Of a stretch of DNA of 31,101 nt, positions 1 to 25,803 are shown one piece after another. The position numbers were made by a program, and so were the translations under genes. The notes beneath the pieces were generated by a model. It was not told the origin of the DNA, made no database searches, and worked only from the letters and a program-made list of their open reading frames with translations. Position 1 is the first letter of the stretch; the number at the start of each line of letters is the position of its first letter. The stretch comes from a bacterium (lineage in GTDB: Bacteria; Hinthialibacterota; Hinthialibacteria; Hinthialibacterales; Hinthialibacteraceae), in contig CAXXSM010000055.1 of NCBI GenBank assembly GCA_963663405.2, positions 1 to 31,101 on the forward strand, in the 5' to 3' direction.

Positions 1-376
1 TCACATCTTTTCGCAAGATGGATTCATAAGCGTCATTGGCCCACGATGTAGACCCCAATCCCATTCGAAACCAAAGCCCCCGCTCATCTTCCCGAAGATC
101 CAATGTGCCCACACTTTTCCGCGCAAGCGGTTTATTCCGATCGTGTCCCCAAAGCGCAACCTGATCGCTTTCCTGTAACGTTTTCCGAAACGCCCCCGGC
201 TCAATCAATTCCCTGAAATAGGTTCCAATAGTCGTTTCCTGATTAAAAACCGCCGCGTACCCCTCAAGATGCCGGGCGCCATTCTCATCCACCACCCGAA
301 TCTCAGCCGCCCCCAAACACCGCTGATTAAAATCCCCCCACCGCTCTTCCGGTTTCATCTCACTCTTCTTCGGCAT
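1..376 (-). CDS. HK97-family phage prohead protease (5' part; runs off left edge)
   Basis: Not in the ORF track because it has no stop in the window. Manual translation from ATG 376: MPKKSEMKPEERWGDFNQRCLGAAEIRVVDENGARHLEGYAAVFNQETTIGTYFRELIEPGAFRKTLQESDQVALWGHDRNKPLARKSVGTLDLREDERGLWFR... The GYAAVF, E.I.PGAF, H-D and L.L.ED.RGL motifs fit Peptidase_S78. Lies directly downstream of the portal gene. Confidence 0.93.
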   Translation of the reverse strand, partial: MPKKSEMKPEERWGDFNQRCLGAAEIRVVDENGARHLEGYAAVFNQETTIGTYFRELIEPGAFRKTLQESDQVALWGHDRNKPLARKSVGTLDLREDERGLWFRMGLGSTSWANDAYESILRKDV

Positions 377-441: not shown

Positions 442-463
442 GCCCAGGGTTTCAACCCTGGGC
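442..463. repeat. REP-like short palindrome overlapping the portal stop codon
   Basis: GCCCAGGGTT-TC-AACCCTGGGC is a perfect inverted repeat. The portal TGA (452-454) lies inside it. Confidence 0.55.
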
Positions 464-1897
464 ACGAGGCGGAACCACCTTCCCATTAGCCCCCAAAATC
501 CGATTCCCCGGCGCCGCAGGCGCCACGCCTTTATCAAGGAAATCAGGCGAATCAAGTAAGACAGCGCCAGCTGGCTGGCTTTTATAATCAGGGTTCAGAC
601 AATTCTTCGTCTCCCCATCCCCATCCACAGGTGACGGCGACCCCTTCCCCGGCTTCTTCCCCCCACTCCCCGAAGGCTCCATATTCCCCGGCATCAAATA
701 AACATCCCCCCCCGCCCGTGGATTCATATTCTCCAAATCCCGAACCTCATTCGCATTGAGCACTCCCCAATTAATCGCGGACCGATAAGCCATCCACCGC
801 GCCATCACATCCCCACGCAGAAGCCCATCCGCGTTAAACTCAAAATAAAATTCCTTCCGCTCGCTATCATCCAACAGATCCAAATTCATCTGCTGTTCCC
901 AATTCTGCATCCAAGGACCCAGGGTGTGCATAACGAAATGAAGGCTCATATGTTCGATATTGTTAAACGTAGCCCGTTTAAGATCGTTGATCATATGCGC
1001 CGGAACCCGGAAGATGGAAGCGATCTCCTCCCGGTTCAACTCCCGCGATTCCAAAAACTGCGCATCCTGCGGAGAAATCCCAACCGTTTCAACTTTCACC
1101 CCCTGCTCAAGAACGGGAACCTCTTCATACGCCTTATCAACGCCCCCAAACTTCTTAGCGAACGATTTCCCAAGATTCGTTCGCGCTTCCGGTTTCAATG
1201 CCCGTTCACTCATGAGCACAAAAGGAGGCGCTGCCCCCTTCTTAAAAAACCGCGCCCCATACCGCTGCGCCCCGATCCCCGCCGCAAGCGTCTCCCGCGC
1301 CGCCGCAATCGGAGAAAGCCCCATCAATCCATCGAGCGAAAGCCCCCGTATATGAAGCACATTACGCGCAGGAATCTCCCGCTCTCCACCGCCCTTCACC
1401 CGAAAATAATATCGAAGTCTCCACCCATCCGCCTCTACCCGCACATGAGACTGTGGCCACGGCCACAACGCCCGAATCCGCGTAGCACGATCCCGCTCGA
1501 TGTACGAATAACAATTCCCCCGCATGGCGGCATGAGCCTGCGCCATCTGACGAAACTGGTACGAAGTCATCTGAGGATTCACACGATCGTGAAGAAGGGT
1601 ATAAAGCGGATGTTCCACCGCCCGTGATTTTTTCTGTGGCCCCGAAGAAGACCGCTGATATAAAAAAAGAGGCAACTGAGCGATCGATTGAGAAAGAACC
1701 TGAATACAAGCATACACAGCAGACAACTGCATAGCCCGATCCGGTGTAACCTCAATCCCCGATTCCGATTCCTCCCCCCCAAACCACTCCGCCAATTCAT
1801 TCGAATACAACGAATAAGGCCCCAACACAGCCGCCCGATAGGCCCGCACAGCCGACCCAGCACACTTCCCCGCCAAAGAAAACAACCTCGAAATCAT
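452..1897 (-). CDS. HK97-family phage portal protein
   Basis: 481 aa with AMQLSAVYACIQVLSQSIAQLP, HPLYTLLH, GNCY, VLHIRGLSLDGLMGLSPI, DAQFLESRE..REEIASIFRVP, ATFNNIE and NEVRDLENMNP..GGD motifs. Confidence 0.97.
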   Translation of the reverse strand: MISRLFSLAGKCAGSAVRAYRAAVLGPYSLYSNELAEWFGGEESESGIEVTPDRAMQLSAVYACIQVLSQSIAQLPLFLYQRSSSGPQKKSRAVEHPLYTLLHDRVNPQMTSYQFRQMAQAHAAMRGNCYSYIERDRATRIRALWPWPQSHVRVEADGWRLRYYFRVKGGGEREIPARNVLHIRGLSLDGLMGLSPIAAARETLAAGIGAQRYGARFFKKGAAPPFVLMSERALKPEARTNLGKSFAKKFGGVDKAYEEVPVLEQGVKVETVGISPQDAQFLESRELNREEIASIFRVPAHMINDLKRATFNNIEHMSLHFVMHTLGPWMQNWEQQMNLDLLDDSERKEFYFEFNADGLLRGDVMARWMAYRSAINWGVLNANEVRDLENMNPRAGGDVYLMPGNMEPSGSGGKKPGKGSPSPVDGDGETKNCLNPDYKSQPAGAVLLDSPDFLDKGVAPAAPGNRILGANGKVVPPRAQG

Positions 1898-2232
1898 GTT
1901 CCCTCAATCCCAAAAACCAGCGCAAGCGCCGTGCTGTTAATTCTCCCCCCAGGATTGGGTGGAGTTAGAGGGGGGTCGATCATCAATGAGACAATCCTTC
2001 CTCCCTCTCTGGGTGCCCAGGACAAGGCTTTTTTCTGTCCTGGCATTGAACCCCACAAACCCAAAAATTTACCGCCGGGACGGAACTGGGGGTTGTTGTT
2101 CAGCGAAACAACATGGGGGGTAAATCCCGCCCCGGCCTAAAACTTCATGAACGGTTGAGGGCTGTACCCTCTTACACTGCGAATCCTATCACCGTTTCAA
2201 AAATATCAACCCAAAATCCAAAAAACACGAAA

Positions 2233-2256
2233 AAAACGTCTATATATAGACGTTTT
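2233..2256. promoter_or_regulatory. 24-bp perfect palindrome (NrdR-box-like operator) upstream of the head genes
   Basis: AAAACGTCTATA|TATAGACGTTTT. The core CTATATATAG fits the NrdR-box core CwAtATaTwG. Function is inferred. Confidence 0.55.
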
Positions 2257-2449
2257 CGATTGAATATAAATATTTCTGCAACATAGTGGAGGGCGCAAAA
2301 AAGTTGATTTTCTGATAGAAATGTGATAGGCGATGGGGGATTACTATGTATAAAAAAACAAACGAAGGGATGATAAATTATTCGATATCAGCGGGGCCTG
2401 AGAGCAAAAAACGGGCGGAATCTTTTATTGTGGATTTCAATCGAAATGT

Positions 2450-4027
2450 TTATTGACAATCGCCAACAATCCCCAAACCCACGAATTCGAGATACATCCA
2501 ATAGGGAATTTCCAGCAAATTCACTTGATCGCCTGTATCGATGATGATCGTGATGGGAAGGAATTGATTGTTTACGTAATCGGGAGGATACAATGGACCA
2601 TTCGCGAGCACAGAAAGATAAATTGACGTGGCTAGCGTATCATCCCATGAGATGTATCCTCCACTGCTAATCCCGTCTCCTCCAACTTGAGGTGTCTCTC
2701 CATTGAATAGCAGTTTCCAGATCACCGCCTGAATTACGTTTTGATCAACGCCAACATATAATCCATAGCGATAATTAACCAGCAAGTAATTCACTAAATC
2801 AAAATTCTCTGGATTGCCTACTAGGGAACATACTTCCGTCTCAGAAGTATAAATCCCAATATTACTATACCACATGCCAAGCTGGATTTTCGTAAGCATA
2901 TCCGCGCACCACGCGGGATACGTTTCTTCGTCTCCCAATGCCGTAGCAGGAATAAACCGCGCGTCAAAATAACTGCCGTTAATCTTACCAGGCCAATACC
3001 GGCTTATAAATCCATCGCCATTCACAAGGTAACTTGTGTCGATCGACACGCACTCAAATGGATAAAAACCGTCCTGAGGAGAATAAGTTAGGTTAACACC
3101 CCGGTTTTGCAGTACAAGAATCGCCGCCCAATCATAACAGGTTAAGTTGTTGTATTGTACCTGAACGACATCTCCTGCTCCGAGACCCGTATTGACGACT
3201 AGACTAGAAATGCTGGTTAATTTATTGCGAGAGCAAGAGAGTGAGGTCAAAGCGGTATTGTTGGAGACATCCAGGTTGGTTAATTGATTTTCATAACACC
3301 AGAGATATTCCAAAGCGGTGTTGTTAGTGACATCCAGGCTGGTTAATTGATTTTTATAGCAATGGAGATAATTTAAAGCGGTGTTGTTGGAGACATTCAG
3401 GCTGGTTAATTGATTGTAGCCGCAATAGAGAAAAGTCAAAGCAGTGTTGTTGGCTACATCCAGGCTGGTTAATTGATTCATAGAGCAATAGAGAGAAGTC
3501 AAAGTGATGTTGTTAGAGAGATCAAGGCTGGTTAATCGATTTTCATAACACCAGAGATATTCCAAAGCGGTGTTGTCAGAGACATCTAGACTGGTTAAAT
3601 GATTTTTATAGCACCTTAGATTAGTCAAAACGGTGTTGTTGGTGACATTTAGACTAGTTAATTGGTTGTTAGTGCACGTGAGATCATTTAAAGCAGTATT
3701 GTTGGAGAGATCAAGGCTGATTAATTGATTGTTATAGCAGTCAAGGCTAGATATACTAGTAAAATATTCAATTCCAGTCAAATCACTAATATTACGATCA
3801 TTGCAGTAAATGGCACCTGTCTTAGCCGCCGCGTCGGCGGCGGTAAAATCTCCACCCATATAACCCTCAATATAACTAAGAAAATTCGGATCGGGGAAAT
3901 GGGTAGAATCGTTTATGTTCTGCGCAGTGGAGAAATTCACCACTAATGAGCTTAAGAGCGCCAATGACACAACAACAATAATCCTTCGCGAGTGGTTTTG
4001 ACAGCATTCTTTTCCTGAAGTAAACAT
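2450..4027 (-). CDS. Secreted LRR protein (9 x 21-aa repeats) with C-terminal putative thioester (TED/TQXA-like) domain
   Basis: Signal peptide (RRIIVVVSLALLSSLVVNFSTA|Q), FPDPNF N-cap, LxxLxCxxNQLTSLDVSNNTA repeats, then C-terminal AWCAD...NPENFDLVNYLL...IQAVIWKLL...GDQVNLL. AGGAG RBS present. Confidence 0.85.
   Translation of the reverse strand: MFTSGKECCQNHSRRIIVVVSLALLSSLVVNFSTAQNINDSTHFPDPNFLSYIEGYMGGDFTAADAAAKTGAIYCNDRNISDLTGIEYFTSISSLDCYNNQLISLDLSNNTALNDLTCTNNQLTSLNVTNNTVLTNLRCYKNHLTSLDVSDNTALEYLWCYENRLTSLDLSNNITLTSLYCSMNQLTSLDVANNTALTFLYCGYNQLTSLNVSNNTALNYLHCYKNQLTSLDVTNNTALEYLWCYENQLTNLDVSNNTALTSLSCSRNKLTSISSLVVNTGLGAGDVVQVQYNNLTCYDWAAILVLQNRGVNLTYSPQDGFYPFECVSIDTSYLVNGDGFISRYWPGKINGSYFDARFIPATALGDEETYPAWCADMLTKIQLGMWYSNIGIYTSETEVCSLVGNPENFDLVNYLLVNYRYGLYVGVDQNVIQAVIWKLLFNGETPQVGGDGISSGGYISWDDTLATSIYLSVLANGPLYPPDYVNNQFLPITIIIDTGDQVNLLEIPYWMYLEFVGLGIVGDCQ
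3215..3780 (-). repeat. 63-bp coding tandem repeat (LRR array 1)
   Basis: Nine units with constant GGTTAATTGATT / AAAGCGGTGTTGTT flanks on the + strand. Boundaries approximate. Confidence 0.9.
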
Positions 4028-4065
4028 AGATACGTTCTCCTTTAAAATCTCATAAACAATTGCAA

Positions 4066-4135
4066 GTGGGTATTCGCCACTGACTCACTATTTCCCTATT
4101 GGCGGCCAAATAGAGGAAAATAGATCAAATGCTTA
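4066..4135 (-). promoter_or_regulatory. c-di-GMP-II riboswitch-like leader, copy 1 (5' end fused to the upstream stop codon)
   Basis: Minus strand reads TAAGCATTTGATCTATTTTCCTCTATTTGGCCGCCAATAGGGAAATAGTGAGTCAGTGGCGAATACCC, with stem CTATTT/AAATAG and pseudoknot CGCCA/TGGCG. Confidence 0.5.
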
Positions 4136-5848
4136 TTGACAATCACCAACAATCCCCAAATCCACAAATTCAAGATACATCCAATAGGGGATTTCCAACA
4201 AATTCACTTGATCGCCTGTATCAATGATAATCGTGATAGGAAGAAATGTATTGTTAGCGTAATCGGGGGGATAGCTGCGTCCATTCGTGAGCACGGAATT
4301 ATAGATAGACGTGGCTAGAGAATTATCCCATGAGATGTATCCTCCACTGCTAATCCCGTCTCCTCCAACTTGAGGTGTCTCTCCATTGAATAGCAGTTTC
4401 CAGATCACCGCCTGAATTACGTTTTGATCAACGCCAACATATAATCCATAGCGATAATTAACCAGCAGATAATTCACTAAATCAAAATTTTCTGGATTGC
4501 CAACCAAGGAACAAACATCCGTCTCAGATGTATAAATCCCAATACTGCTGTACCACATGCCTAGTCGAATTATTGTAAGCATATCCGCACACCACGCGGG
4601 ATATGTTTCTTCCCCGCCCAGCGCCGTCGCTGGAATAAACCGCGCATCAAAATAACTGCTATTTATATATCCCGGCCAATATCGACCACTGCCTCCACCG
4701 GTTCCATCTCCATTAACGAGGTAACTTGTGTCGATCGATGGACAACTAAATGGATTTAAACCATTCTGGGGGGAATCATGAAACTCAGCGCCAATCCGGC
4801 TTTGTAGTATAAGAATAGCCGCCCAATCATCGCAGGATAGGTTGTTGTACATTACATTAACATAATCTCCTGATCCGAGACCCGTATTGGCGACTAAACT
4901 TGAAATGTTCGTTAATTGATTGTCATCGCATGAAAGGGTTTTTAAAGCGGTGTTGTTGGAGACATTCAGGTTTGTTAATTGATTTGTACTGCACCAGAAC
5001 CAATATAACGCAGTGTTATTGGAAACATCCAGGCTGGTTAATTGATTCCTCTGACACCAGAACCAATATAACGCAGTGTTGTTAAAGACATCTAAACTGG
5101 TTAATTGATTGTCGCCACATTTGAAAATAGTCAAAGCAGTGCTGTTGGTGACATCTATGCTGGTTAATTGATTATTTTGACACTCGAGGTTAGTCAAAGC
5201 AGTGTTGTTGGATACGACCAGGCTGGTTAATTGATTGTTATCGCAACGGAGATAAGTCAAAGCGGTGTTATTGGAGACATCCAGGCTTGTTAATTGATTG
5301 GTATAGCAATAGAGATAAGTCAAAGCGGTGTTGTTGGATACGTCCAGGCTGGTTAATTGATTGTCATAGCATTGAAGGCTAGTCAAAGCGGTGTTGTTGG
5401 ATACGTCCAGGCTGGTTAATTGATTGTTATCGCATCGAAGGCTAGTCAAAGCAGTGTTGTTGGATACGACCAGGCTGGTTAATTGATTGTTATCGCAACG
5501 GAGATAAGTCAAAGCGGTATTGCTGGAGACGTCCAAACTGGTTAATTGATTGCCATAGCATTTAAGTTGTTGTATACCAGTAAAAAATTCTATTCCAGTC
5601 AAATCACTGATATTCTTATAGATAGGGCTGAAAACACCCGTCTTCGCCGCCGCGTCTGCGGCTGTGAAATCTCCACCCATATAACTCTCAACATAGCTAA
5701 GGAAATTCGGATCGGGAAAATGGGTGGAATCGTTGATGTTCTGAGCAGTGGAGAAATTCACCATGAATGTACTTAAGAGCGCCAGTGATACAACAACAAT
5801 AATTTTTCGCGAGTGGTTTTGACTGCATTCTTTTCCTGAAGTTAACAT
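4133..5848 (-). CDS. Secreted LRR protein (11 repeats) with C-terminal putative thioester (TED/TQXA-like) domain
   Basis: Paralog of 2450..4027 with a near-identical C-terminal domain. Start moved from 5929 to ATG 5848 (MLTSGKEC) because it follows an AGGAG RBS and aligns with the paralog start, giving 571 aa. Confidence 0.85.
   Translation of the reverse strand: MLTSGKECSQNHSRKIIVVVSLALLSTFMVNFSTAQNINDSTHFPDPNFLSYVESYMGGDFTAADAAAKTGVFSPIYKNISDLTGIEFFTGIQQLKCYGNQLTSLDVSSNTALTYLRCDNNQLTSLVVSNNTALTSLRCDNNQLTSLDVSNNTALTSLQCYDNQLTSLDVSNNTALTYLYCYTNQLTSLDVSNNTALTYLRCDNNQLTSLVVSNNTALTNLECQNNQLTSIDVTNSTALTIFKCGDNQLTSLDVFNNTALYWFWCQRNQLTSLDVSNNTALYWFWCSTNQLTNLNVSNNTALKTLSCDDNQLTNISSLVANTGLGSGDYVNVMYNNLSCDDWAAILILQSRIGAEFHDSPQNGLNPFSCPSIDTSYLVNGDGTGGGSGRYWPGYINSSYFDARFIPATALGGEETYPAWCADMLTIIRLGMWYSSIGIYTSETDVCSLVGNPENFDLVNYLLVNYRYGLYVGVDQNVIQAVIWKLLFNGETPQVGGDGISSGGYISWDNSLATSIYNSVLTNGRSYPPDYANNTFLPITIIIDTGDQVNLLEIPYWMYLEFVDLGIVGDCQ
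4905..5600 (-). repeat. 63-bp coding tandem repeat (LRR array 2)
   Basis: Eleven units; TYLRCDN and YWFWC modules each occur twice. Boundaries approximate. Confidence 0.9.
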
Positions 5849-5880
5849 AGTTACTTCTCCTAATAATATAATAATTATAT

Positions 5881-5958
5881 TGTTGGAGGGGATTCGCCAC
5901 TGGCTCCCTATTTTCCTATTGGCGACCAATTAGAGAAAAATAGATCAATGCTTCCACA
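5881..5958 (-). promoter_or_regulatory. c-di-GMP-II riboswitch-like leader, copy 2 (best preserved)
   Basis: Minus strand reads GGAAGC-ATTGA-TCTATTTTTCT-CTAATTGG-TCGCCA-AT-AGGAAAATAGG-GAGCCAG-TGGCGA-ATCC. Same layout as the class II c-di-GMP aptamer: GGAA.C, kink-turn GA/GA, long stem, 6-bp pseudoknot TCGCCA/TGGCGA. Ends about 30 nt before the start codon. Confidence 0.65.
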
Positions 5959-6202
5959 TTTATTGCAAGTCAAAAAAATAATAAAGTAAAATCAATATGT
6001 TGCATAGTGGTATATATTAATAAAATAAAAAAAGCACTAAAACGTTACATTCATTACCATTTAAGTAAACTATACCATTCATCCCTCTATATTTAAAGAT
6101 AGATACAACCAAATAATAGATATAATAATATGATTCCAAGAATACAAAAAAGTGAATTGAATTTGAAAAAAATTATAACTATGCGAAATCCACTATCGCT
6201 TT

Positions 6203-6478
6203 CTATTTCTCCGCCGTCGAATACCGCTTCCCACATTTCGCACTTAAACAAAGACGATAACGAGTTATGTAACCCCTCTTCCGTTCCGTTTTTACGACCT
6301 TGCTATACACACTCCCACAATAAGGACACCCAACCCCCCGCTCAATCCTCCGCGCCATCCGCACATCCTGATAAACCTTCACCAGTTTTTCGATATCAAC
6401 CCGCCCGATCCGCTTCGCCCACTGCTTCACAGCAGCTCCCTCAACACCTGATCCAACTTTTAAAACGTCACCTTCCAA
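6203..6478 (-). CDS. Small NrdR-N-like zinc-ribbon protein (N-terminally shortened paralog of 7981..8391)
   Basis: CPYCGSVYSKVVKTERKRGYITRYRLCLSAKCGKRYSTAEK. The C-terminal ~55 aa are nearly identical to 7981..8391. Confidence 0.75.
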   Translation of the reverse strand: MEGDVLKVGSGVEGAAVKQWAKRIGRVDIEKLVKVYQDVRMARRIERGVGCPYCGSVYSKVVKTERKRGYITRYRLCLSAKCGKRYSTAEK

Positions 6479-6503
6479 TTACGAGAACCGTTTTGATACC
6501 CGC

Positions 6504-7655
6504 TTAATCAAACTCAATTGACACTCTCACCATATCTAATATATTGACTGCTCCATCATCATTCACATCCGCTAGATCGGGTATGGAGCCATCCCCTATG
6601 GACGACCAGGATGGAGAGAGTCCATCGTTTACTTCACGGCCAAAATGAATACTAATCACGACTAAATCCAAAATATTTACCACCCAATCGCCGTTAACAT
6701 CCTCAACCTTCGGTATGCAATAAAATGGATCCAATCCATTTTGAGGGGAATAATAAAAACTATTTAAATTTCGGCTTTGCAGAGTAAGAATATCCGCCCA
6801 ATCATCGCAGGATAGATTGTTGTACTGTACTTGTAAGCTATCCCCTGATCCGAGGCCAGGATTGGCGATTAGACTTGAAATGTTAGTTAATTGATTATTT
6901 TTACAGTTGAGATTAATCAAAGCGGTGTTATTGGAGATATCCAGGCTTGTTAATTGATTGGTATAGCAATAGAGAAAAGTCAAATCGGTGTTGTTGGAGA
7001 CATCCAGGCTCGTTAATTGATTGGTATAGCAATAGAAGATAACTAAATCGGTGTTGTTGGAGACATCCAGGTTCATTAATTGATTCTCATAGCACCTTAG
7101 TGTAGTCAATGCAGTGTTGTTGGAGACATCCAGGCTTGTTAATTGATTATTCCCACAATTGAGATAAAGCAAATCGGTGTTGTTGGAGATATCCAGGCTC
7201 GTTAATTGATTGGTATAGCAAAAGAGAAAAGTCAAAGCGGTGTTGTTAGAGACATCCAGGCTAGTCAATTGATTGGTATGGCAGTGGATAACATCTAATG
7301 CAGTATTTTTGGAAAGGTCTAAACTAGTTAGCTGATTAACATGGCAACCGAGTGCCTGTATACTAGAAAAATATTGTATTCCAGTCAAATCACTGATATT
7401 ACGGTTATTGCAACCAAAAGCACCCGTTTTCGCCGCTGCATCGGCGGCAGTGAAAGGATTTTCTGGATCGGTGGGGGGAGGATTCATGAAATTCCTAACT
7501 GCATCAAGGAAATTCGGATCCGGGAAATGTGCGGACGTGTTGATGTTTTGCGCGATGGATGTATTTACCATAAATGCGCTCAAGAGCGTCAGTGATACAA
7601 CAATAATTATCTTTCGTGAGTTTTTTTTGACAATTTTTTTTTCGAAAGTGAACAT
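6504..7655 (-). CDS. Secreted LRR protein (8 repeats) with C-terminal dockerin-like duplicated Ca-binding motif
   Basis: Same signal peptide, N-cap and LRRs as the paralogs; ends with DVNGDWVVNILDLV...DVNDDGAVNILDMV. Start moved to ATG 7655 (GGGAG RBS, aligns with paralogs), giving 383 aa. Confidence 0.85.
   Translation of the reverse strand: MFTFEKKIVKKNSRKIIIVVSLTLLSAFMVNTSIAQNINTSAHFPDPNFLDAVRNFMNPPPTDPENPFTAADAAAKTGAFGCNNRNISDLTGIQYFSSIQALGCHVNQLTSLDLSKNTALDVIHCHTNQLTSLDVSNNTALTFLFCYTNQLTSLDISNNTDLLYLNCGNNQLTSLDVSNNTALTTLRCYENQLMNLDVSNNTDLVIFYCYTNQLTSLDVSNNTDLTFLYCYTNQLTSLDISNNTALINLNCKNNQLTNISSLIANPGLGSGDSLQVQYNNLSCDDWADILTLQSRNLNSFYYSPQNGLDPFYCIPKVEDVNGDWVVNILDLVVISIHFGREVNDGLSPSWSSIGDGSIPDLADVNDDGAVNILDMVRVSIEFD
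6885..7390 (-). repeat. 63-bp coding tandem repeat (LRR array 3)
   Basis: Eight units with the same framework as arrays 1 and 2. Boundaries approximate. Confidence 0.9.
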
Positions 7656-7680
7656 TGATAAATTCTCCCAGAAATTTGTT

Positions 7681-7754
7681 GTTGAAGGGGATACGTCATT
7701 CGCTACATGTTTCTCGATTGGCAACCAATAAGAGGAAAACAGACCAGTGCTTCT
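7681..7754 (-). promoter_or_regulatory. Degenerate c-di-GMP-II riboswitch-like leader, copy 3
   Basis: Minus strand reads AGAAGCACTGGTCTGTTTTCCTCTTATTGGTTGCCAATCGAGAAACATGTAGCGAATGACGTATCCCC. It aligns to copies 1 and 2 and keeps the stem as TGTTT/AAACA, but the pseudoknot and kink-turn are mismatched. Confidence 0.4.
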
Positions 7755-7980
7755 ACCTGAATTATATATTGAGTTAAGAATAAAGCAAAATTTATTCTTT
7801 GAATAGAGATTATATACAAAACGCATAAATCGATATACTATCACTACTATTTTAGTATATTTTTACATTCATCCATCAATATTTATAGTTAACTTCAATT
7901 ATATAATAGAAATAACAACATGATATCACAGCATAATTTAGGTGAAATTGAGTTGTTTTTTTAAAAACAATACCAAAAAC

Positions 7981-8391
7981 TCACTTCTCCACCGTCGAAT
8001 ATCTTCGCCCACACTTCGCACTTAAACAGACACGGTATCGCGTGATGTATCCACGCTTCCGTTCCGTTTTTACAACCTTGCTATACACACTCCCACAAAA
8101 CGGACACCCCACCCCCCGCTCAATCCTCCGCGTCATCCGAGCATCCTGATAAACCTTCACAAGCCCCTCAACCTCCCCCTTCCCAATCCGCCGCGCCCCC
8201 CGCTGCACGGACTTATCCCCCACCTCCTGCGAAATCTCATAATAAGGAACAACGGCTTTCCGAAACAAATGCCGGGGAATCCGAAACCGCTCCGCAAACG
8301 AATGCAATTCCTCCACAGAATCCGCCATCAACCGTTGCCGCCTCTTCAATCCCGCCCCCGTTCTCAATGCGTCAACATAAACAGCCATCAT
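7981..8391 (-). CDS. DUF4031-like domain fused to an NrdR-N-like zinc ribbon
   Basis: N-terminal MAVYVD...LMADSVEELHSFAERFRIPRHLF...YYEI matches the DUF4031 pattern. C-terminal CPFCGS..SKV..T.......RYRVC....CGRRYSTVE matches the NrdR Zn ribbon, without an ATP cone. Confidence 0.75.
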   Translation of the reverse strand: MMAVYVDALRTGAGLKRRQRLMADSVEELHSFAERFRIPRHLFRKAVVPYYEISQEVGDKSVQRGARRIGKGEVEGLVKVYQDARMTRRIERGVGCPFCGSVYSKVVKTERKRGYITRYRVCLSAKCGRRYSTVEK

Positions 8392-8411: not shown

Positions 8412-9893
8412 TGTAGCTGTTATGCTTGAATCGGTCCACGAAATACCGATTGGAAAAAGAGATTTTAGCAGTTTTTTAGGTTGTGAATGAAGCCAGTGAC
8501 AGATGTTCTTTAATTGTTTTGACAATAACGTTTTAGATTTGATGTCTGGGGGATACAACTTCCCTGATGAATCGTTACATGATTATATGTCAATACAATT
8601 TCAAGCCACTTTTGAAAGACGAAAAGCCATAGTATTTGTTTCTTCAAACCGGCGTCGTTCAATAGGGAAGGGAACTGTTTTCGCGTCTCTGTTTAATGGA
8701 TCTTTTTGGTGTTCTGCATGAACTTCATTGGGAGTTCTTCCCTCAAATCGATAATGTGGTCGCCATTCGTTGTACCATTCCGAAAATGAGTTGCAAAGAG
8801 ATTCCAGATGATCAAATCCTTTGACAATCGCTACCCGGTTCAACCATTCATATTTCAGCGTCTTGATCACTCGCTCGGTCACGGCGATCGAACCATGTTT
8901 TCCAACCGCGCCCAAACGGTGCTTCATATTAAAGTTTTCAACGAATTCCGCGAATGCGTCGCTGGTAAAAATCGGTTCTTGATCAGAGATAATATGCTTC
9001 GGAGAGCCATGGATTTCAATCGCTTGTTCCAAGGCTTCAATTGTCCAACCGGCATTGGGGCCTTCCAGGGGAGAGCAGCAAACCACCTTCCGGGAATAAT
9101 GGTCTATCGCAACAAGAACGTATGTTGGCCAGAGACCCCACCGAAACACAATCGTTCGATCCACACTCCACACGTGATTGGGATACCAAGCCGGGATGGA
9201 CCGCTGGGAGGATTGCTCACTATCTTCTCCAGCCGGATTGGGCGCCAGAGATGGTTCCCCTGGTGGATAAGGTCGTTGCAGGATGTTGCGAACCGTTGAG
9301 GCCGCCAAGAAAATGTTAAGAAGGGACAACTGAAGAGAAATCCGAATCCGTCCCCAATGCGGATTGGCTTTGGCAATTTCCCAGACGAGTAGGGCCACTT
9401 CGATAGGAGTTTTGTTTGCTGGTTCGTTTTTGTTCCCACTTTGATTTTCGATATTCTTCAGCCATCGATTAATCGTTGATCGAGCCACACCGAGTCGTTT
9501 CGTCATCTCCCGAGTGGAAATTTGGAAATATTCCTTGTACCAAAGAATCCATAACCGTTCTCGAAGTGAATAGCGTGGTTTATGATTCTTATCTCTTCCT
9601 TGTTTGCGCAAAATTTCCAGTTCTGTTTCCAATTGAAAAATGCGATCACGTAGAAATTGGTTCTCGACTTCGGGATTGTTCTCCTCTTCAGCAAGATGTT
9701 TCATTTGCTTGAAACGAGTAATTCCCGCCCATCGAGCAAGACAAGATGAGAGTCTTCAAAATCAAAGGAATTGCTGCTTGAATTACGTCCATAGTGGTCC
9801 CGTTTATGAGTATGTATTGAAATGGGATCATATGTATTAACATCAATATTGTCAACCGGTTATCGGTGGACCGATTCTTGGATAACAGCTTCA
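8412..9893 (-). mobile_element. IS481/IS3-superfamily-like IS, copy A (1482 bp)
   Basis: Imperfect 28-bp TIRs TGTAGCTGTTATGCTTGAATCGGTCCAC / GTGGACCGATTCTTGGATAACAGCTTCA. Near-identical to copy B. Confidence 0.9.
8601..9792 (-). pseudogene. rve-type DDE transposase, copy A, with a 1-bp insertion near the 5' end
   Basis: GAGCAAGACAAG (~9737) versus GAGCTGACAAG in copy B separates ATG 9792 from the body. A 367-aa ORF from 9704 still holds the HTH and DDE domains. Confidence 0.8.
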
Positions 9894-9933: not shown

Positions 9934-11414
9934 TGAAGCTGTTATGCTTGAATCGGTCCACGAAATACCGATTGGAAAAAGAGATTTCAGCAGTTTTTTA
10001 GGTTGTGAATGAAGCCAGTGACAGATGTTCTTTAATTGTTTTGACAATAACGTTTTAGATTTGATGTCTGGGGGATACAACTTCCCTGATGAATCGTTAC
10101 ATGATTATATGTCAATACAATTTCAAGCCACTTTTGAAAGACGAAAAGCCATAGTATTTGTTTCTTCAAACCGGCGTCGTTCAATAGGGAAGGGAACTGT
10201 TTTCGCGTCTCTGTTTAATGGATCTTTTTGGTGTTCTGCATGAACTTCATTGGGAGTTCTTCCCTCAAATCGATAATGTGGCCGCCATTCGTTGTACCAT
10301 TCCGAAAATGAGTTGCAAAGAGATTCCAGATGATCAAATCCTTTGACAATCGCTACCCGGTTCAACCATTCATATTTCAGCGTTTTGATCACTCGCTCGG
10401 TCACGGCGATCGAACCATGTTTTCCAACCGCGCCCAAACGGTGCTTCATATTAAAGTTTTCAACGAATTCCGCGAATGCGTCGCTGGTAAAAATCGGTTC
10501 TTGATCAGAGATAATATGCTTCGGAGAGCCATGGATTTCAATCGCTTGTTCCAAGGCTTCAATTGTCCAACCGGCATTGGGGCCTTCCAGGGGAGAGCAG
10601 CAAACCACCTTCCGGGAATAATGGTCTATCGCAACAAGAACGTATGTTGGCCAGAGACCCCACCGAAACACAATCGTTCGATCCACACTCCACACGTGAT
10701 TGGGATACCAAGCTGGGATGGACCGCTGGGAGGATTGCTCACTATCTTCTCCAGCCGGATTGGGCGCCAGAGATGGTTCCCCTGGTGGATAAGGTCGTTG
10801 CAGGATGTTGCGAACCGTTGAGGCCGCCAAGAAAATGTTAAGAAGGGACAACTGAAGAGAAATCCGAATCCGTCCCCAATGCGGATTGGCTTTGGCAATT
10901 TCCCGGACGAGTAGGGCCACTTCGATAGGAGTTTTGTTTGCTGGTTCGTTTTTGTTCCCACTTTGATTTTCGATATTCTTCAGCCATCGATTAATCGTTG
11001 ATCGAGCCACACCGAGTCGTTTCGTCATCTCCCGAGTGGAAATTTGGAAATATTCCTTGTACCAAAGAATCCATAACCGTTCTCGAAGTGAATAGCGTGG
11101 TTTATGATTCTTATCTCTTCCTTGTTTGCGCAAAATTTCCAGTTCTGTTTCCAATTGAAAAATGCGATCACGTAGAAATTGGTTCTCGACTTCGGGATTG
11201 TTCTCCTCTTCAGCAAGATTTATCATTTGCTTTAAACGAGTAATTCCCGCCCATCGAGCTGACAAGACGAGAGTTTTCAAAATCAAAGGAATTGCCGCTT
11301 GAATTACGTCCATAGTGGTCCCGTTTATGAGTATTTATTGAAATGGGATCATATGTATTAACATCAATATTGTCAACCGTTTATCGGTGGACCGATTCTT
11401 GGATGACAGCTTCA
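9934..11414 (-). mobile_element. IS481/IS3-superfamily-like IS, copy B (1481 bp)
   Basis: TIRs TGAAGCTGTTATGCTTGAATCGGTCCAC / GTGGACCGATTCTTGGATGACAGCTTCA. Confidence 0.9.
10123..11313 (-). CDS. rve-type DDE transposase (HTH + integrase core), intact
   Basis: HTH LGVARSTINRW; core WSVD, IDHYSR, ISDQ..IFTS, TERVIKTLKYE, YNEWRPH. Confidence 0.92.
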   Translation of the reverse strand: MDVIQAAIPLILKTLVLSARWAGITRLKQMINLAEEENNPEVENQFLRDRIFQLETELEILRKQGRDKNHKPRYSLRERLWILWYKEYFQISTREMTKRLGVARSTINRWLKNIENQSGNKNEPANKTPIEVALLVREIAKANPHWGRIRISLQLSLLNIFLAASTVRNILQRPYPPGEPSLAPNPAGEDSEQSSQRSIPAWYPNHVWSVDRTIVFRWGLWPTYVLVAIDHYSRKVVCCSPLEGPNAGWTIEALEQAIEIHGSPKHIISDQEPIFTSDAFAEFVENFNMKHRLGAVGKHGSIAVTERVIKTLKYEWLNRVAIVKGFDHLESLCNSFSEWYNEWRPHYRFEGRTPNEVHAEHQKDPLNRDAKTVPFPIERRRFEETNTMAFRLSKVA

Positions 11415-13447: not shown

Positions 13448-13970
13448 CTAAGCCTTTCACTGAATTTACTCGACTTTCATTATCATCAACCACTTTTAGG
13501 AATTTGATTTTGCCCTAAATTTGCCCAAATTATTGCTCCCTATTATTACTCATTTATCATTGGTATAGACAATCTAAGTTATTGAAATACGCTCAAATGA
13601 TTTGTAAATGACAAATGACTTCTGGATTATTGGAATTTGAGTTTTTTCTCGAATTGAAGATAATGATCAGTATCTTCTTTGGAAATAGAAGGCTTGACAC
13701 AAGTGAGTGCTTTATTGAAATCGGCCATGGTTACCCATTCAGTGACAATAGGAGACACGTTTCCGTTCTCGACTTGAGCAACCTTACGTTGAATTGCCGC
13801 TTGCTTGGCAATGCTGCAAAGTCCATCACGATCAGCAACAAGATCTGCTCCTGAATATCCTTCTGTTTGTTCAGCTAATTGCTTGAAATCTACATTGTCA
13901 ATGGGAACGCCTTCCATAGCGTGACGGAGCATTGCTTCACGAGCAATGGAATCGGGAGGACCTACATATA

Positions 13971-15168
13971 TACTTTACTCGGCCATAACTTGAGCTTTTG
14001 AAAAGTCTTGAAAATTCAATGTTAGTAACGAATTTAATTGTTTTTTGCGCATTACATGAACTTCATCCATGAAATCCGTAATCGCCATTTTAAATGTTGA
14101 GAATGTCTCATAATATTTACAATACAAACATTCCTTTTTCACTAGCTTCCAAAATCGTTCGATGAGATTTAGATTCGGTGAATAGGCGGGAAGAAAGAGC
14201 AATTCAATTTTCAAGGATTTTGCTTTTTCTTCGACTAACTTACATCGTTGATATCTGGCATTATCCAAGATTAGAGTGATAGGCCCCTTTTTGTATTTGG
14301 TTCGAATCTTGATCAGAAGATCGCTCACACTCTGTGCGTTGATATAAGTGGTGTTCGTGATGGTGATCAATTCGTGATCGATCGCGTCCAACGCCCCTAA
14401 CACATTAAACCGTTGTCTCCCCGCTGGCGTTTTGATAAAAAGTCGACCGAAACACCAGAGGAATCCCAAGAAGAGACCAAAGACAAAATGGGATGCATCC
14501 ACAAAGAAAACCTTTCGTTTCCCCGCTTTCGCTTGGTTTAAACGGGGAATCAATTTTTCTTTTTTGAACCGGGCCTGCTCAGCCGGATTCGCTTTACTGG
14601 GGATCGAACCAACTTTAAGACAGCGCATTCCAATCGATTTTAAAAATTGACGAACCTGAGTCAACCCGCGTTGAATTCCGGTAAGATCATTTATGACGGC
14701 TCGGGCTTCATTCACTGTGGCCGGAGGATTCTCTCTGAAATATTCTTTCAATGTCATGCTGTACTGAGTCAATTCACTCTGGGGTTGGTAGAATTGAATC
14801 TCCTTCAGTCGTTCAATTCCACCTTCCTGATATTCTCGGAGATAGGCGCGTATCGTATTCCCTGAAATGTCTTCGAGATTGGCAATCATGGAATGGGTCA
14901 TCCCCTGGCTTTTCAGCAAAAGAACACTCATTTTTTTGAACTCTCGGATGGGGATGGTTATAGCGTTCATATCGAAGTTGATCGATTATTTCTTTCGTAA
15001 ACTCAACTCGTATCATTGACTCTCAACCCTGATAGTAAGAATAGTAAAAATAAGTTATGGTATGTCAAATTTCACACTATTCAAGTTATTGAAAATAAAT
15101 ATGTTATATGATCGCTTTAAGGCAGTATATGCTTCTTCAAAAAGCTCAAATCATTCCCGCGTTGAGTA
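13971..15168 (-). mobile_element. IS630-family element with TA target duplication
   Basis: TA at 13969-70 and 15169-70. Imperfect IRs TACTTTACTCGGCCATAACTTGAGCTTTT / AAAAGCTCAAATCATTCCCGCGTTGAGTA. Confidence 0.92.
13975..15016 (-). CDS. IS630 transposase, split by a frameshift in an A7 run
   Basis: MIRVEF...ERYNHPHPRVQK (from 15016) joins KMSVLLLKSQG at 14931-14937. DDE motifs FFVDAS, LILDNARY, LPAYSPNLNLIERFW. Confidence 0.85.
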
Positions 15169-16508
15169 TACTAAGCGGCCAAATCTACCAGGACGTGTTG
15201 CGCCCGGATCTAGCATCCAGGGTTGATTGGTTGCTCCTAAGAGAAACATGCAGTTCTTTTGTGGATCAATTCCATTAATCAATTGAAGTAGTTGAGGTAC
15301 CACCCTATTCATCACAGATTGACTTGCATCCGAACGTTTTTGGAATAATGCTTCGGCTTCATCGAAAAATATAATGGAGCGTGGATGTTGACTGGCTTCA
15401 TCGAACAATTGTGAGATAAACCGCTCAGTCTCACCAAACCACTTGCTCAAAACACGATCCATGGCAACCGGGTAAAAAGCCGCATCCAACTCACCGGCAA
15501 TCGCTCGTGCGATAAAAGTTTTTCCAGTTCCCGGAGGGCCATACATAAGTACCCCTGTACCTGGATACTGACGATATTCGGCATAAATATCTGGATATTT
15601 CATGGGAAGAATCACACTGGTTTGGATGATTTCTTTCAACTCCTCCATCCCGGCTACATCATCTAAGCGCGTATCAGGCCGTTCAACAAGACGCATGCTT
15701 TTGGCTGTTTCATCTGGGGATTGATCATCATTAGTTTGAATTTTTTTCTGTGAACCATTTTGTTTGGTGACTTTATACAAAGACATAGCTTGATCGCCTC
15801 GTTTTTCATACTGTAAAAGACGTTGAATTAAGTGATCGCGTGTATTTCCATTTGCCGATTTTGCCATATTGAATGTGGCGCGAGCGGCGAGAAATAGGTA
15901 CTGCGCACCGTCTCGCCATTGCTCTTTTTCTATTAGCTCTTTTGCTTTTGTTTCAGCCAAAATACGTTCTCGTTCATAATTCATAATGGCTCTCCTGCTA
16001 TTTTTTAAATTTTATAACTTGTGATTTATAGAGATTTAAGAAACACTTTGTTTCTCTTTTTGATCCAATCGTTTACCTATATCAGCAAGTAAAGAATCTT
16101 GATTAGATTCAGTATCATCAGTGATTTCTACTGCGGCGTCTGATTTAATAGCTGCATACACATCCATCTCCTGTTGGTTCATTTGGGGAGTGGATGATTG
16201 TTCGTTTGTATCATTCTCCCAAATTTCTTCCCAAGGAGCCAAGAAATCTCTGTTTTTTTCAGCGATTTCACGCAAACGCTCAATTGTGACATCGGGATCG
16301 ATGCTAATCTTCCCAGTCTCTTCAATATCAAAGACAACCGTCATTCCACGTTGGAATTCTTCTAGGTTCGATTTCATTGAAACCTGACTCAAGGCAAAAT
16401 CCATATTACCCACAACTAAAGACCGTGATGTAATCTGTTTGTCCATTTGTACCAAGTGGCGAACCGCTTGTTGAGCTAAGACACACTTACCCTGGACTTT
16501 CGCACTTT

Positions 16509-22987: not shown

Positions 22988-24130
22988 TTATGAACATTGA
23001 ATTTTCGCTGCGTCAACGATGAAATCCGTAATTTTTTGCATGGGTTTACGCAGTCTTTCAACATCCGTGATGATATAACCAGCCGTCACATCTCCTGATA
23101 TTTTGTGATTCAACAATCGCTTCAGAGCGTAAGCGGGAATATCGAGACTTTCCGCAATGCTTATGAATGTTCTACGGAGATCATGGATCATGAAATTCAC
23201 TCCGGATGTTTCTATAACTTTCTTTACTGCTTTATTGGGCTCAACAAGATGACCTGTCTTTCCTGAGCCAGGGAAGACGTATTCGCCTATTTTTTCGCGT
23301 GAATTAAAGAGATTCCAAAGGTAATCGCTAAGAGGAAGGACTAATGGTTCATGAGTCTTCGTATCAGGAACTGTGAAAGTCTTCTCTATTAAGTCAACAT
23401 CTTTCCACTTCAACTTTGCCGCTTCTCCCTTTCTCATACCGGAGAAAAGGAGGAGAAGGAGATAATCTTTTATTGTTGGATTGGGGAGATTATAAACTGA
23501 TTGATACCAACTAGGTAAATCATAATTTTTTAAGATACTCCTTCTTCGTTGTACTCGAAACCATGCTCTTGTCTGTCCAAGACGCGATATAGGATTAGGT
23601 GGCATACTTTCATTGAGCGCCTTGGCATGATTGTAAACGGCTCTTAACACTCTCATTACTAAATTTGCCGTGGAGTGACCGGTCTCACCTAATTTCATAT
23701 GCCTTTCAAGAACCATATCTTTTGTGATTGTCTTAATAGGCTTTTTCAACCAGTCTTTCAGGTAAAGGTTCAAAGAACGAGTATAGTCATCGATTGTTTT
23801 AGGTGTCAATTGTTTACGTGTCTTAAGGTAGGATTCGAAGGCAGCTTTCAACGTGATATTATCCGGCTTTAATTCCTCTCTTGGATCATCACCGTTAGCC
23901 AATCGCAACAAGATTTCCTGGGCTTTTTTACGGGCAAGTTCGGTAGTGAAGACACCATGTCGCCCGATTGTAATACGAACTGTCCGGCCTTCGACATCGC
24001 GTTGAATAATATACGTCTTGGACTTCTTTCCAACGCAGACACCGAATCCCTTCAGTTGGGAATCAAAATAAATACGTTGCCCCTTATTTTGGTAAGGGAT
24101 CTCTTCCACTTTCATTTTGGTTAGTTTCAT
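22988..24130 (-). CDS. int: Tyrosine integrase with N-terminal arm-binding domain
   Basis: YFDSQLKGFGVCV..KSKTY...RITIGRHG N-domain; catalytic set GMRKGE, DTKT, HDLRR, LNH, AGY is complete. Adjacent to a tRNA fragment. Confidence 0.95.
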   Translation of the reverse strand: MKLTKMKVEEIPYQNKGQRIYFDSQLKGFGVCVGKKSKTYIIQRDVEGRTVRITIGRHGVFTTELARKKAQEILLRLANGDDPREELKPDNITLKAAFESYLKTRKQLTPKTIDDYTRSLNLYLKDWLKKPIKTITKDMVLERHMKLGETGHSTANLVMRVLRAVYNHAKALNESMPPNPISRLGQTRAWFRVQRRRSILKNYDLPSWYQSVYNLPNPTIKDYLLLLLFSGMRKGEAAKLKWKDVDLIEKTFTVPDTKTHEPLVLPLSDYLWNLFNSREKIGEYVFPGSGKTGHLVEPNKAVKKVIETSGVNFMIHDLRRTFISIAESLDIPAYALKRLLNHKISGDVTAGYIITDVERLRKPMQKITDFIVDAAKIQCS

Positions 24131-25586: not shown

Positions 25587-25803
25587 AGTGATTCTCCTTT
25601 TCAATCACCTTGCCCTCATTTCGTTGACACGCAAGATGATGCCAGTAATTGTCCAATGAGTCAATCACATTCCGTCCCCAATAGCCTCTTCCTGGGGATC
25701 CAATTAAGCCATGGGAGCGAAGACTCTCGAGTTTGACAAAACCCTTGAGAATTTCACGTAATTCCTCTTTGTCATAGAGAGTAGTTGGATCTATCTTTCT
25801 CAT
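25456..25803 (-). CDS. Small putative excisionase/HTH-like protein overlapping the integrase start
   Basis: GGGAG RBS; N-terminus LYDKEELREIL...LESLRSHGL...YWGRNVID is MerR/Xis-like in pattern; xis-int arrangement. Confidence 0.45.
   Translation of the reverse strand: MRKIDPTTLYDKEELREILKGFVKLESLRSHGLIGSPGRGYWGRNVIDSLDNYWHHLACQRNEGKVIEKENHFDTNTQSKRRKIQDRQVHATPGTARPMESQRARFRRKLSENSV

Follow-up and report, generated by a model that had tools for sequence, protein, structure and literature searches.

A 31,101-nt contig (CAXXSM010000055.1) from the genome of a bacterium of the family Hinthialibacteraceae (assembly GCA_963663405.2) carries on its minus strand three genes for secreted leucine-rich repeat (LRR) proteins, here named LRR1, LRR2 and LRR3. 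Our data suggest that these genes probably belong to a large family of extracellular proteins which has undergone expansion in the lineage of the diderm host, i.e. proteins that join an LRR head to a C-terminal attachment tail and whose genes follow leaders of the class II cyclic di-GMP (c-di-GMP-II) riboswitch clan. The neighbouring portal, protease and Zn-ribbon genes belong to degraded mobile DNA and lie outside this system. The window, as we call the whole stretch analysed, is the entire 31.1-kb contig (C55) of a source assembly of 8.44 Mb in 170 contigs that is 82% complete.

Read 5' to 3' on the minus strand, the order is Zn-ribbon gene, LRR3, a fragment of the Zn-ribbon gene, LRR2, LRR1, a spacer of 550 nt holding a terminator-like hairpin, portal gene and protease gene. 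A first-pass annotation of the window had likewise placed the array between the Zn-ribbon gene (7981-8391) and the portal gene (452-1897). The array itself comprises the following features.

2232..2257, minus strand: intrinsic-terminator-like hairpin, an 11-bp stem followed by a T run, which ends the LRR array ahead of the portal gene
2450..4027, minus strand: LRR1, 525 aa, with signal peptide, N-cap, nine LRR units, C-cap and TED-like (thioester domain-like) tail
2453..3040, minus strand: TED-like domain of LRR1 (aa ~330-525), with Cys374 (WCAD), Gln433/Trp437 (IQAVIW) and Gln501 (DQVNLL)
4057..4145, minus strand: predicted aptamer of the c-di-GMP-II clan before LRR1 (RF01786 26.3 bits, E 0.017-0.028; nhmmer E 3e-14)
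4133..5848, minus strand: LRR2, 571 aa from the ATG at 5848, on the plan of LRR1 with 11 LRR units and a TED-like tail at about 4136-4732
5876..5964, minus strand: predicted aptamer of the c-di-GMP-II clan before LRR2 (RF01786 40.5 bits, E 1.7e-6 to 2.7e-6)
6504..7655, minus strand: LRR3, 383 aa from the ATG at 7655, with eight LRR units and a predicted type I dockerin tail at 6522-6704
7678..7766, minus strand: third aptamer copy, before LRR3, probably decayed (nhmmer E 1.7e-14; aligns with the other two)

The open reading frames (ORFs) were found where they had been stated to lie. The start codons preferred for LRR2 (5848) and LRR3 (7655) give proteins shorter than the longest ORFs; the 571-aa form of LRR2 is already on record in databases.

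LRR heads and C-terminal tails of an expanded family

The tails of LRR1 and LRR2, which are ~200 residues long and 87% identical to each other, are identified by motifs, profile links, a profile-profile comparison and the predicted fold, four mutually independent lines of evidence, as a divergent class-I-like thioester domain (TED). PMC4450167 and PMC6194298 describe three TED motifs, i.e. [YFL]C-Phi-zeta, TQxxPhiW in a central helix and Phi-Q-zeta-Phi-Phi, and the tail has three motifs that match these in order and spacing. The first reads W-C-[AV]-D and lies in a predicted strand (68-74), with W where Y, F or L is usual, and the second reads I-Q-A-[VAI]-I-W in a predicted helix (129-140), with I in place of T. 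The Gln of the third, Q201, stands at the start of a predicted strand (202-208) in the context D-Q-V-N-L and is invariant in all 17 copies from the genome itself. The residues W73-C74, I132-Q133-A134, W137 and E206 are also among those invariant in these 17 copies, the identity of which goes down to 25%, and C74, Q133 and W137 are the sole invariant columns over 30 sequences including distant homologues.

Profile searches connect the tail to annotated TEDs. A profile made from the 17 own copies and run against 1.84 billion proteins yielded 622 proteins at E <=1e-3, 79 at 1e-10 and 17 at 1e-30, with 16 of the first 60 matches coming from the source genome. In a Pfam scan covering 132 listed profile matches other than the window proteins, the Pfam TED family (PF08341) was found in 10/61 and 3/71 of the proteins scanned, and the match started at the Cys motif and spanned the QxxPhiW motif in all nine cases inspected. 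P0037, one of the profile matches (E 1.1e-19), scores strongly as a TED protein (56.3 bits vs a cut-off of 22) and has two TEDs and an SdrD-B stalk; the family profile aligns WC and IQAxIW in register with both of its TEDs, and the members of its cluster, from a cyanobacterium, are named 'thioester domain-containing protein' by NCBI. In addition, an hhalign comparison of the tail family with 25 distant homologues gave a probability of 99.9 (E 1.5e-34) with all three motifs aligned. Because only these homologues, and not the window proteins, match Pfam TED, the sequence link from tail to TED is transitive only. A word-indexed homologue search returned seven proteins, six of them from the source genome, a scan of a contig database added six distant loci (uncultured bacteria, an Omnitrophota metagenome-assembled genome and two cyanobacteria), and a search seeded with P0037 yielded mainly matches to the SdrD-B stalk. 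Direct sequence searches, i.e. Pfam at E <=10, NCBIfam, phmmer against the PDB, three PDB profile searches and a further one with a TED-positive homologue, gave matches at chance level only (UL130, a glutamate receptor and nitrile hydratase), which were rejected as identities of the tail.

An AlphaFold2 model of the tail (mean predicted local distance difference test score 81.3, predicted template-modelling score 0.80) shows five strands, three helices, two strands and a terminal helix, i.e. the TED layout as described. All seven Foldseek matches in the PDB at E <=1e-3 are TED chains (5a0g, 4c0z, 5a0d), with E 2e-5 to 5a0g. In VIA-align, ranks 1-13 are all occupied by TEDs (CpTIE, Cpa, FNE, SfbI, BaTIE, PnTIE, EfmTIE86 and SaTIE), with Z 10.3-7.2 and a root-mean-square deviation of 3.3-4.5 A over 132-177 residues (model residues ~30-210), and the next entry is cyclin A at Z 3.2. 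The first-pass annotation had itself named a tail that does not fold like a TED as the outcome that would speak against it; the tail withstood this check, the top PDB matches of the model being all TEDs.

The tail of LRR3 is of another kind. It matches Pfam Dockerin_1 at E 1.4e-5 (25.7 bits) with the whole ORF and at 5.7e-7 (30.1 bits) with the tail alone, the cut-off being 22.9, which identifies it as a predicted type I dockerin that is expected to bind a cohesin. Motifs, profile links, predicted fold and the Dockerin_1 match together bear out the earlier assignment of TED-like modules to LRR1 and LRR2 and of a dockerin to LRR3. Six proteins encoded on contig C6 have dockerin tails with ~80% identity to that of LRR3; on this contig, a TED-tailed gene stands among those for dockerin-tailed subtilases and FG-GAP proteins. 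The source genome holds 18 dockerin matches and 11 cohesin matches, 10 of the latter above the cut-off.

Both the tail and the LRR head recur throughout the source genome. The TED tail gave 20 tblastn high-scoring segment pairs (HSPs) on 15 contigs and 23 profile matches, corresponding to about 21 genes, one of which is truncated and one frameshifted. It always stands at the extreme C-terminus, behind LRRs, PKD domains, a subtilase, PD40 repeats, a 2,904-aa giant and others, and it ends in a conserved hydrophobic stretch followed by G-I-V-x-D-C. LRR, subtilase and PD40 propeller passengers occur with either tail, i.e. TED or dockerin. The LRR N-cap gave 47 HSPs on 24 contigs, and the nearest paralogues of the window genes (on C27, C149 and C111) lie among genes for an oxidoreductase, BipA, a sialidase-like protein, a carbamoyltransferase and the like. 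Among 18 other genomes of the same family, four have a single weaker copy of the tail and 14 have none; in the two of these four that were inspected, the tail lies within a giant ORF and is not C-terminal. The source genome encodes two Omp85 proteins, and neither a sortase nor a photosystem reaction-centre gene was found in this 82% complete assembly. LPXTG is not present in the tail proteins and the TED is their last domain, i.e. the architecture of the Gram-positive thioester-isopeptide-ester (TIE) proteins is not found here.

With regard to the heads, the three window proteins are secreted paralogues with a common signal peptide, N-cap and LRR framework, as the first-pass annotation had stated. 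By inspection, all three begin with a Sec-type signal peptide, i.e. a basic stretch and the hydrophobic core IIVVVSLALLS, followed by TAQ/N; the N-cap FPDPNF and an LRR unit of 21 residues are likewise common to them. Counting of motifs gave 9, 11 and 8 units at exact 21-residue spacing for LRR1, LRR2 and LRR3, respectively, in agreement with the numbers claimed before. The LRR domain matches Pfam LRR_4, the LRR part of LRR1 matches Internalin-J (InlJ) of Listeria (3bz5) at E 9.9e-64 with the N-cap within the match, and the two hallmarks of the InlJ-type cysteine ladder, i.e. 21-residue LxxLxCxxN repeats and an FPDxNF N-cap, are both present.

Variation within the unit is focused on few positions. 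Over 25 internal units, the entropy is 2.3-3.2 bits at positions 15, 16, 18, 20 and 21, and <=1.0 bit at the remaining, nearly fixed positions (1-14, 17 and 19). The five variable positions are the x positions of LxxLxCxxN, which form the concave beta-face in LRR structures, so that the differing surface residues noted earlier are confirmed, for this face, by the entropy values. A rough Nei-Gojobori estimate of the ratio of non-synonymous to synonymous substitutions (dN/dS) gave 0.79 (LRR1 vs LRR2) and 1.38 (LRR2 vs LRR3) at the five positions, compared with 0.09 and 0.07 at scaffold positions and 0.11 in the TED tail, with synonymous sites near saturation (pS ~0.5) and the orthology and pairing of units uncertain. 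For these reasons only the 10-20-fold contrast between variable and scaffold positions is claimed, and positive selection proper, which is not proven by such values, was dropped. What we claim for the variable positions is focused relaxation or diversification, and we propose that the hypervariable LRR domain is a ligand-binding head. A diversity-generating retroelement was also considered and dropped, there being no reverse transcriptase among the Pfam matches of the window.

Leader RNAs and the proposed mechanism

The regions upstream of the three genes share a mean column identity of 72% and are members of the c-di-GMP-II clan, the stems and pseudoknot of which covary here. Over 19 aligned copies from the source genome, 87.7% of the cells pair, vs 42-54% in a control in which the partners are shifted by 1-3 columns; since the sequences are related and the structure was derived from the family model, this shifted control is the fairer yardstick. 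Nine of the ten hairpin pairs show compensatory change. Pairing in the 5-bp pseudoknot reaches 94.7%, and two of its positions switch GC/AU and CG/GC in 8-9 copies. In the 12-copy subfamily to which the window's leaders belong, 88.3% of the cells pair, P1 is 80% paired and all ten hairpin pairs covary; pseudoknot pairing is 93-95% over both sets of copies, with two covarying pairs, and the shifted controls of both sets lie at 42-55%. Single copies in two genomes of the same family score above the Rfam threshold (63.9 and 60.3 bits) and align end to end and without gaps with the source copies. One of them (relative G007, L050 1501-3066) lies, by eye, ~220 nt upstream of CsgE/CsgF-like curli genes.

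Infernal found 21 aptamers in the source genome and nhmmer 22; they are spread over 17 loci, 10 of which precede TED-tailed genes; eight GGDEF genes are encoded as well. The expression platform looks translational. In the leader of LRR2, a CCUCC in the 3' strand of P1 can pair with an AGGAG ribosome-binding site that follows 14 nt later, and in the minimum-energy fold CCUCC is indeed paired with GGAG; across the window's subfamily the AGGAG site lies 8-30 nt downstream. The aptamer of LRR1 begins within the end of LRR2: its 5' P1 strand overlaps the LRR2 stop codon, and P1 is, by inspection, rebuilt from the last codons of LRR2. This nesting suggests co-transcription combined with translational control gene by gene.

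Two features of the aptamers stand apart from these points. The 19 aligned copies fall into two subfamilies that differ by compensatory changes in the pseudoknot (UCGCC/GGCGA vs UCACG/CGUGA), and the position predicted to correspond to G73 of the ligand-bound structure is C in 10 copies, including all three of the window, and G in nine; the two subfamilies may represent two ligand specificities in one genome. Furthermore, aptamers occur in tandem, as two triplets and one doublet, at C38:19821-20076, C106:58402-58659 and C18:33777-33950; small secreted proteins are encoded downstream at C38 and C18 (144-156 and 254 aa), and a similar small ORF, recognized by eye, at C106. Tandem c-di-GMP-II aptamers (doublets and triplets) before surface-anchor genes have already been reported (PMC9481103).

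Taken as a mechanism, a rise of the second messenger would make the aptamer close P1 and withdraw CCUCC from the AGGAG ribosome-binding site, upon which translation would start; such an ON switch is suggested by the sequence and by the behaviour of class II c-di-GMP riboswitches. The proteins would be exported by means of the Sec signal peptide seen in their sequence. The TED tail would then form an internal Cys374-Gln501 thioester, and by reacting with an amine or hydroxyl group on a partner this would fix the protein covalently; the dockerin version would do the same job non-covalently on a cohesin. Since passengers of the same types occur in the source genome with one or the other tail, and the tail invariably ends the protein, we tend to think that the TED tail would tether the protein to the surface or matrix of its own cell, leaving the LRR to face outward, rather than harpoon the ligand of the LRR. 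The order of events envisaged by the first-pass annotation, 'recognise, then attach covalently', is possible; a TED anchor with a displayed LRR fits the data at least as well.

Going further, we would tentatively speculate that the TED tail serves the diderm as a covalent anchoring tag of general use that needs no sortase, by which some ten or more proteins (LRR binders, proteases and propellers) fix themselves to their own envelope or matrix on a cyclic-dinucleotide signal. The dockerin-cohesin pairs would then be a parallel non-covalent set and the hypervariable InlJ-type LRR heads a displayed repertoire of binding specificities, and the aptamer subfamily of the window, with its changed contact base, might read a cyclic dinucleotide other than the one read by the canonical subfamily of the same genome.

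Mobile DNA around the array and alternative explanations

The array is flanked by the following genes and gene remnants.

2..376, minus strand: prohead protease gene of caudovirus type, cut by the contig end (Peptidase_S78 E 4.7e-26; phrog_80; GC 0.528)
452..1897, minus strand: portal gene (Phage_portal E 2.8e-109; phrog_12; GC 0.544)
6206..6460, minus strand: 3' fragment (aa 52-136) of a second DUF4031/Zn-ribbon copy between LRR3 and LRR2 (tblastn 72% identity over 85 aa; GC 0.514)
7981..8391, minus strand: gene for a DUF4031 protein with NrdR-like Zn-ribbon (DUF4031 E 1.1e-10; Zn_ribbon_NrdR E 1.8e-6; phrog_4887, function unknown; GC 0.545)

The GC contents of the window form a mosaic. The LRR genes have 0.395-0.418 (LRR3 0.395; LRR2 and LRR1 0.42), their paralogues elsewhere 0.41-0.47 and the whole genome 0.469, and the phage-type genes of the window, with the values listed above, are accompanied by 0.509 in a phage module on contig C4. 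The portal and protease genes are genuine phage genes. In the best-matching phage, the gene for the large subunit of the terminase lies 34 nt upstream of the portal gene, i.e. in the place that is taken by the array here, and no terminase of three Pfam families or of the type of the nearest phage was found in the 82% complete assembly. Contig C4 starts with a capsid gene, followed by genes for connectors, tail tube, tape measure and baseplate-type proteins, two large ORFs and an M15 peptidase. This module could be the continuation of C55; no contig-end overlap joining C55 to another contig, C4 included, was found. The C4 module (C4:1-20000) also carries DUF2460, phiJL001 Gp84-N/BR0599 and Phage-tail_3/Rcc01698_C genes, a set that we take to be typical of RcGTA-like clusters and related siphophages.

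The Zn-ribbon gene was dropped as a typical phage gene, having a single weak match in 50,697 phage records. A copy that is 82% identical lies on contig C169 beside a DUF927 helicase-primase-type gene and integrases. There (C169 5173-5580 and 8512-8622), the Zn-ribbon gene is followed by a cargo gene for a 908-aa WD40 protein and then by a repeat of its own 3' end, and the window shows the same succession at 7981-8391 and 6206-6460 with an LRR gene as cargo; such a pattern could arise by tandem duplication or from a recombination hot spot at the 3' end of the gene. Region 5100-6430 is colinear with 6886-8208 at 71%, and the fragment at 6206-6460 appears to mark an old tandem duplication of a unit consisting of the Zn-ribbon gene and an LRR gene.

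Directly past the Zn-ribbon gene, insertion sequences begin, and the remainder of the contig is a series of insertion sequences, integrases and broken genes; transposases of at least five types make the contig a mosaic. An rve-family insertion sequence is present twice, at 8601-9704 and 10123-11313, with flanks that are 98.9% identical and a transposase with 46 tblastn matches genome-wide. A gene for an AAA ATPase with a Vps4-type C-terminal domain (13627-15984) is split by a DDE_3 insertion sequence (13975-14970), and a replication-relaxation (Replic_Relax) gene at 30051-30979 is split into two adjoining ORFs, with tyrosine integrase genes near it at 22988-24130 and 24399-25604. On the other side, a hairpin element resembling repetitive extragenic palindromes lies at 2011-2064, with the stem CCAGGACA/TGTCCTGG round a T-rich loop; it has 68 short-BLAST matches on 33 contigs, including tandem arrays with a period of 110-111 nt (C24:18081-18444 and C23:9850-10072). 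No tRNA marking an attachment site is present in the window.

It had been proposed that the array is prophage cargo, i.e. a diversifying system that serves the phage or converts the lysogen, in which the LRR picks a target and the TED harpoons the same target. Its position between a high-GC Zn-ribbon gene and a portal gene, with a Zn-ribbon fragment interleaved with the LRR genes, agrees with this, as do the long late-gene module at the start of C4, possibly continuing C55, and the match of the LRR part to phrog_7816 (E 9e-55), as phage-encoded LRR proteins of such type exist; TEDs, moreover, bind host targets covalently (PMC4450167). The GC mosaic and the array's own terminator resemble those of a phage 'moron', so that residence inside mobile DNA is possible. 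What would make up the prophage is distributed, with a portal and a protease gene on C55, a capsid-to-lysin module on C4 and insertion sequences on the other side of the array. However, the N-cap HSPs are scattered over the same genome, as are the ~21 tail genes and the 22 leaders, which lie mostly in ordinary host contexts, the nearest paralogues are found among host genes and the 83 nt 3' of LRR1 are common to the C27 paralogue. The GC content of the array is like that of the host paralogues, its terminator is strong and its own, the flanking phage module lacks a terminase, in whose place the array sits, the ends of C55 and C4 do not overlap, and the Zn-ribbon gene is both bordered by insertion sequences and nearly absent from phage records. 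Proteases and other non-recognition passengers carry the tail as well. The claim of a prophage-carried system was not borne out by these data, and we consider it unlikely; the phage angle does not hold up as a functional link. The array sits in degraded mobile DNA with moron-like features, and we found nothing to show that it acts together with a phage or on behalf of one.

Other observations that count against our interpretation concern the tail and the leaders. The D-Q-V-N-L of the tail suits Phi-Q-zeta-Phi-Phi only loosely, the Foldseek template-modelling scores are modest (0.34-0.47), Pfam TED gave no match to the window proteins or the 17 own copies even at E <=10, and the window tails have no direct match in NCBIfam or among PDB sequences, even when used as a profile. 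The metagenomic, non-self protein P0016, which combines a double LRR with the same tail and shares 45% identity with LRR1, reads WRAN where LRR1 has WCAD, which indicates that the tail can persist without the Cys. P0016 would suit an unreactive TED fold, i.e. a tail that forms no thioester and acts as a non-covalent tag for sorting, secretion or wall binding, and so would the consistently terminal position of the tail with its conserved hydrophobic stretch and G-I-V-x-D-C end, and its exchange for a non-covalent dockerin. Yet the Cys, the Gln and Trp of the helix and the late Gln are kept in 17/17 copies in spite of the divergence between them, the first three are the sole invariant columns in the 30 sequences, and a scan of four neighbourhoods revealed no dedicated processing enzyme. 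An unreactive tail therefore appears unlikely, and we prefer a reactive, covalently attaching one. With respect to the leaders, the first-pass annotation had seen the same structured, c-di-GMP-like leader on each gene; clan homology, stems and pseudoknot stood up, but the scores are sub-threshold and the third copy looks decayed. The gathering score of RF01786 is 53.5 bits, with Rfam matches seen only in E-value mode, and the leaders of LRR2 (40.5 bits) and LRR1 (26.3 bits), like all 22 aptamers of the source genome, fall below it. The leader of LRR3 has no Rfam match at E <=10, and two of its five pseudoknot pairs and several otherwise invariant bases are, by inspection, altered. These RNAs might be specificity variants of the c-di-GMP-II fold that sense another ligand, e.g. 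another cyclic dinucleotide. The best copy of the window, that of LRR2, passes none of the three clan models (36.7 bits with RF03170, II-GCG, and 31.7 bits with RF03169, II-GAG). In the structure 3Q3Z the ligand is contacted by A69, A70 and G73 (PMC13715770), and at the positions that we map to 69, 70 and 73 by an Infernal alignment, with the numbering inferred from that paper, the window copies read A, U and C, i.e. U and C replace the predicted contacts A70 and G73 in the window's subfamily. A single-nucleotide change in this fold can shift its specificity towards isomers of cyclic GMP-AMP (PMC13715770). On the other hand, the leaders retain the architecture, the pseudoknot and the greater part of the conserved core, the alignment with the threshold-passing copies of the relatives is gapless, the downstream genes are of the surface or matrix type typical of c-di-GMP control, and GGDEF enzymes are encoded. 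Another ligand is thus a possibility of some substance, if not the one we favour; we only infer c-di-GMP itself, because of the sub-threshold scores, the decayed third leader and the replaced contact G.

Comparison with known systems

The components of the proposed host system are already in print, i.e. class II c-di-GMP riboswitches before adhesins, TEDs as covalent adhesin domains, InlJ-type LRRs and dockerins, and TEDs in cyanobacteria are already annotated in databases. In the limited collection of literature searched, there was no description of a C-terminal TED tail in a diderm, of its fusion to LRRs, of its exchange for a dockerin or of its expansion. What is new here is an expanded, predicted C-terminal TED tail in a diderm, interchangeable with a dockerin and fused to hypervariable LRRs. 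While the TEDs of the literature examined are N-terminal warheads of sortase-anchored adhesins from Gram-positive bacteria, the same predicted fold serves here as a C-terminal modular tail in a bacterium with an outer membrane, and about half of the TED-tailed genes belong to a regulon of predicted cyclic-dinucleotide riboswitches. Should the thioester prove real, the tail would provide diderms with a route of covalent attachment to surface or matrix, and nature would offer in it compact tags that ligate themselves and come with a variable LRR binder. To study ligand specificity in the c-di-GMP-II fold, the riboswitch subfamily in which the predicted contact base is altered would be a ready test case.

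The first-pass annotation knew of no described system of this kind, which is in part contradicted by PMC11477304, where the combination of a c-di-GMP-II riboswitch with a thioester surface protein is listed for C. difficile. There, CD3246 (CdTEP), a TED surface protein, is under the control of a class II c-di-GMP riboswitch, and high c-di-GMP turns on surface attachment proteins; the likeness consists in a c-di-GMP-II-type leader before a secreted TED protein. In contrast, CD3246 is a Gram-positive, sortase-anchored LPXTG protein behind a transcriptional ON switch, whereas here the bacterium is a diderm, no sortase was found in the assembly, the TED is at the extreme C-terminus behind an LRR head, control is apparently translational, and the aptamers are sub-threshold with a changed predicted contact base. 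The TIE proteins with class I TEDs (CpTIE, SfbI and Cpa) resemble the tail in predicted fold (Z 10.3-8.8) and in the order and spacing of the three motifs described in PMC4450167. They have an N-terminal TED, an isopeptide/ester stalk and LPXTG, while the TED here is C-terminal and lacks these; the tail, moreover, has no direct Pfam match, carries an extra C-terminal helix and the G-I-V-x-D-C end, occurs in ~21 copies in one genome, and its thioester is predicted.

With regard to the heads, InlJ (3bz5) shares the FPDxNF N-cap and the 21-residue LxxLxCxxN repeats. InlJ is anchored to the wall through LPXTG and carries MucBP domains; the tails here, by contrast, are TED or dockerin. Lamprey variable lymphocyte receptors, the analogy drawn by the first-pass annotation, are comparable in that an LRR scaffold varies at the residues of its concave face, and their structures are weak PDB matches of the LRR proteins, but here the variation consists of germ-line paralogy and changes in repeat number, with no assembly or diversity-generating machinery seen in the window. 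The array is like a phage moron in that it lies as a cassette between mobile-element genes, is regulated and terminated on its own and deviates in GC content, and unlike one in that the flanking module has no terminase and the cassette family is overwhelmingly chromosomal. Finally, cohesin-dockerin systems of the cellulosome type likewise put varied passengers on a common C-terminal module, as is seen for LRR3 and at least six C6 proteins with near-identical dockerins in a genome that encodes cohesins, with the difference that two of the three window genes carry, instead of the dockerin, a domain that is predicted to attach covalently.

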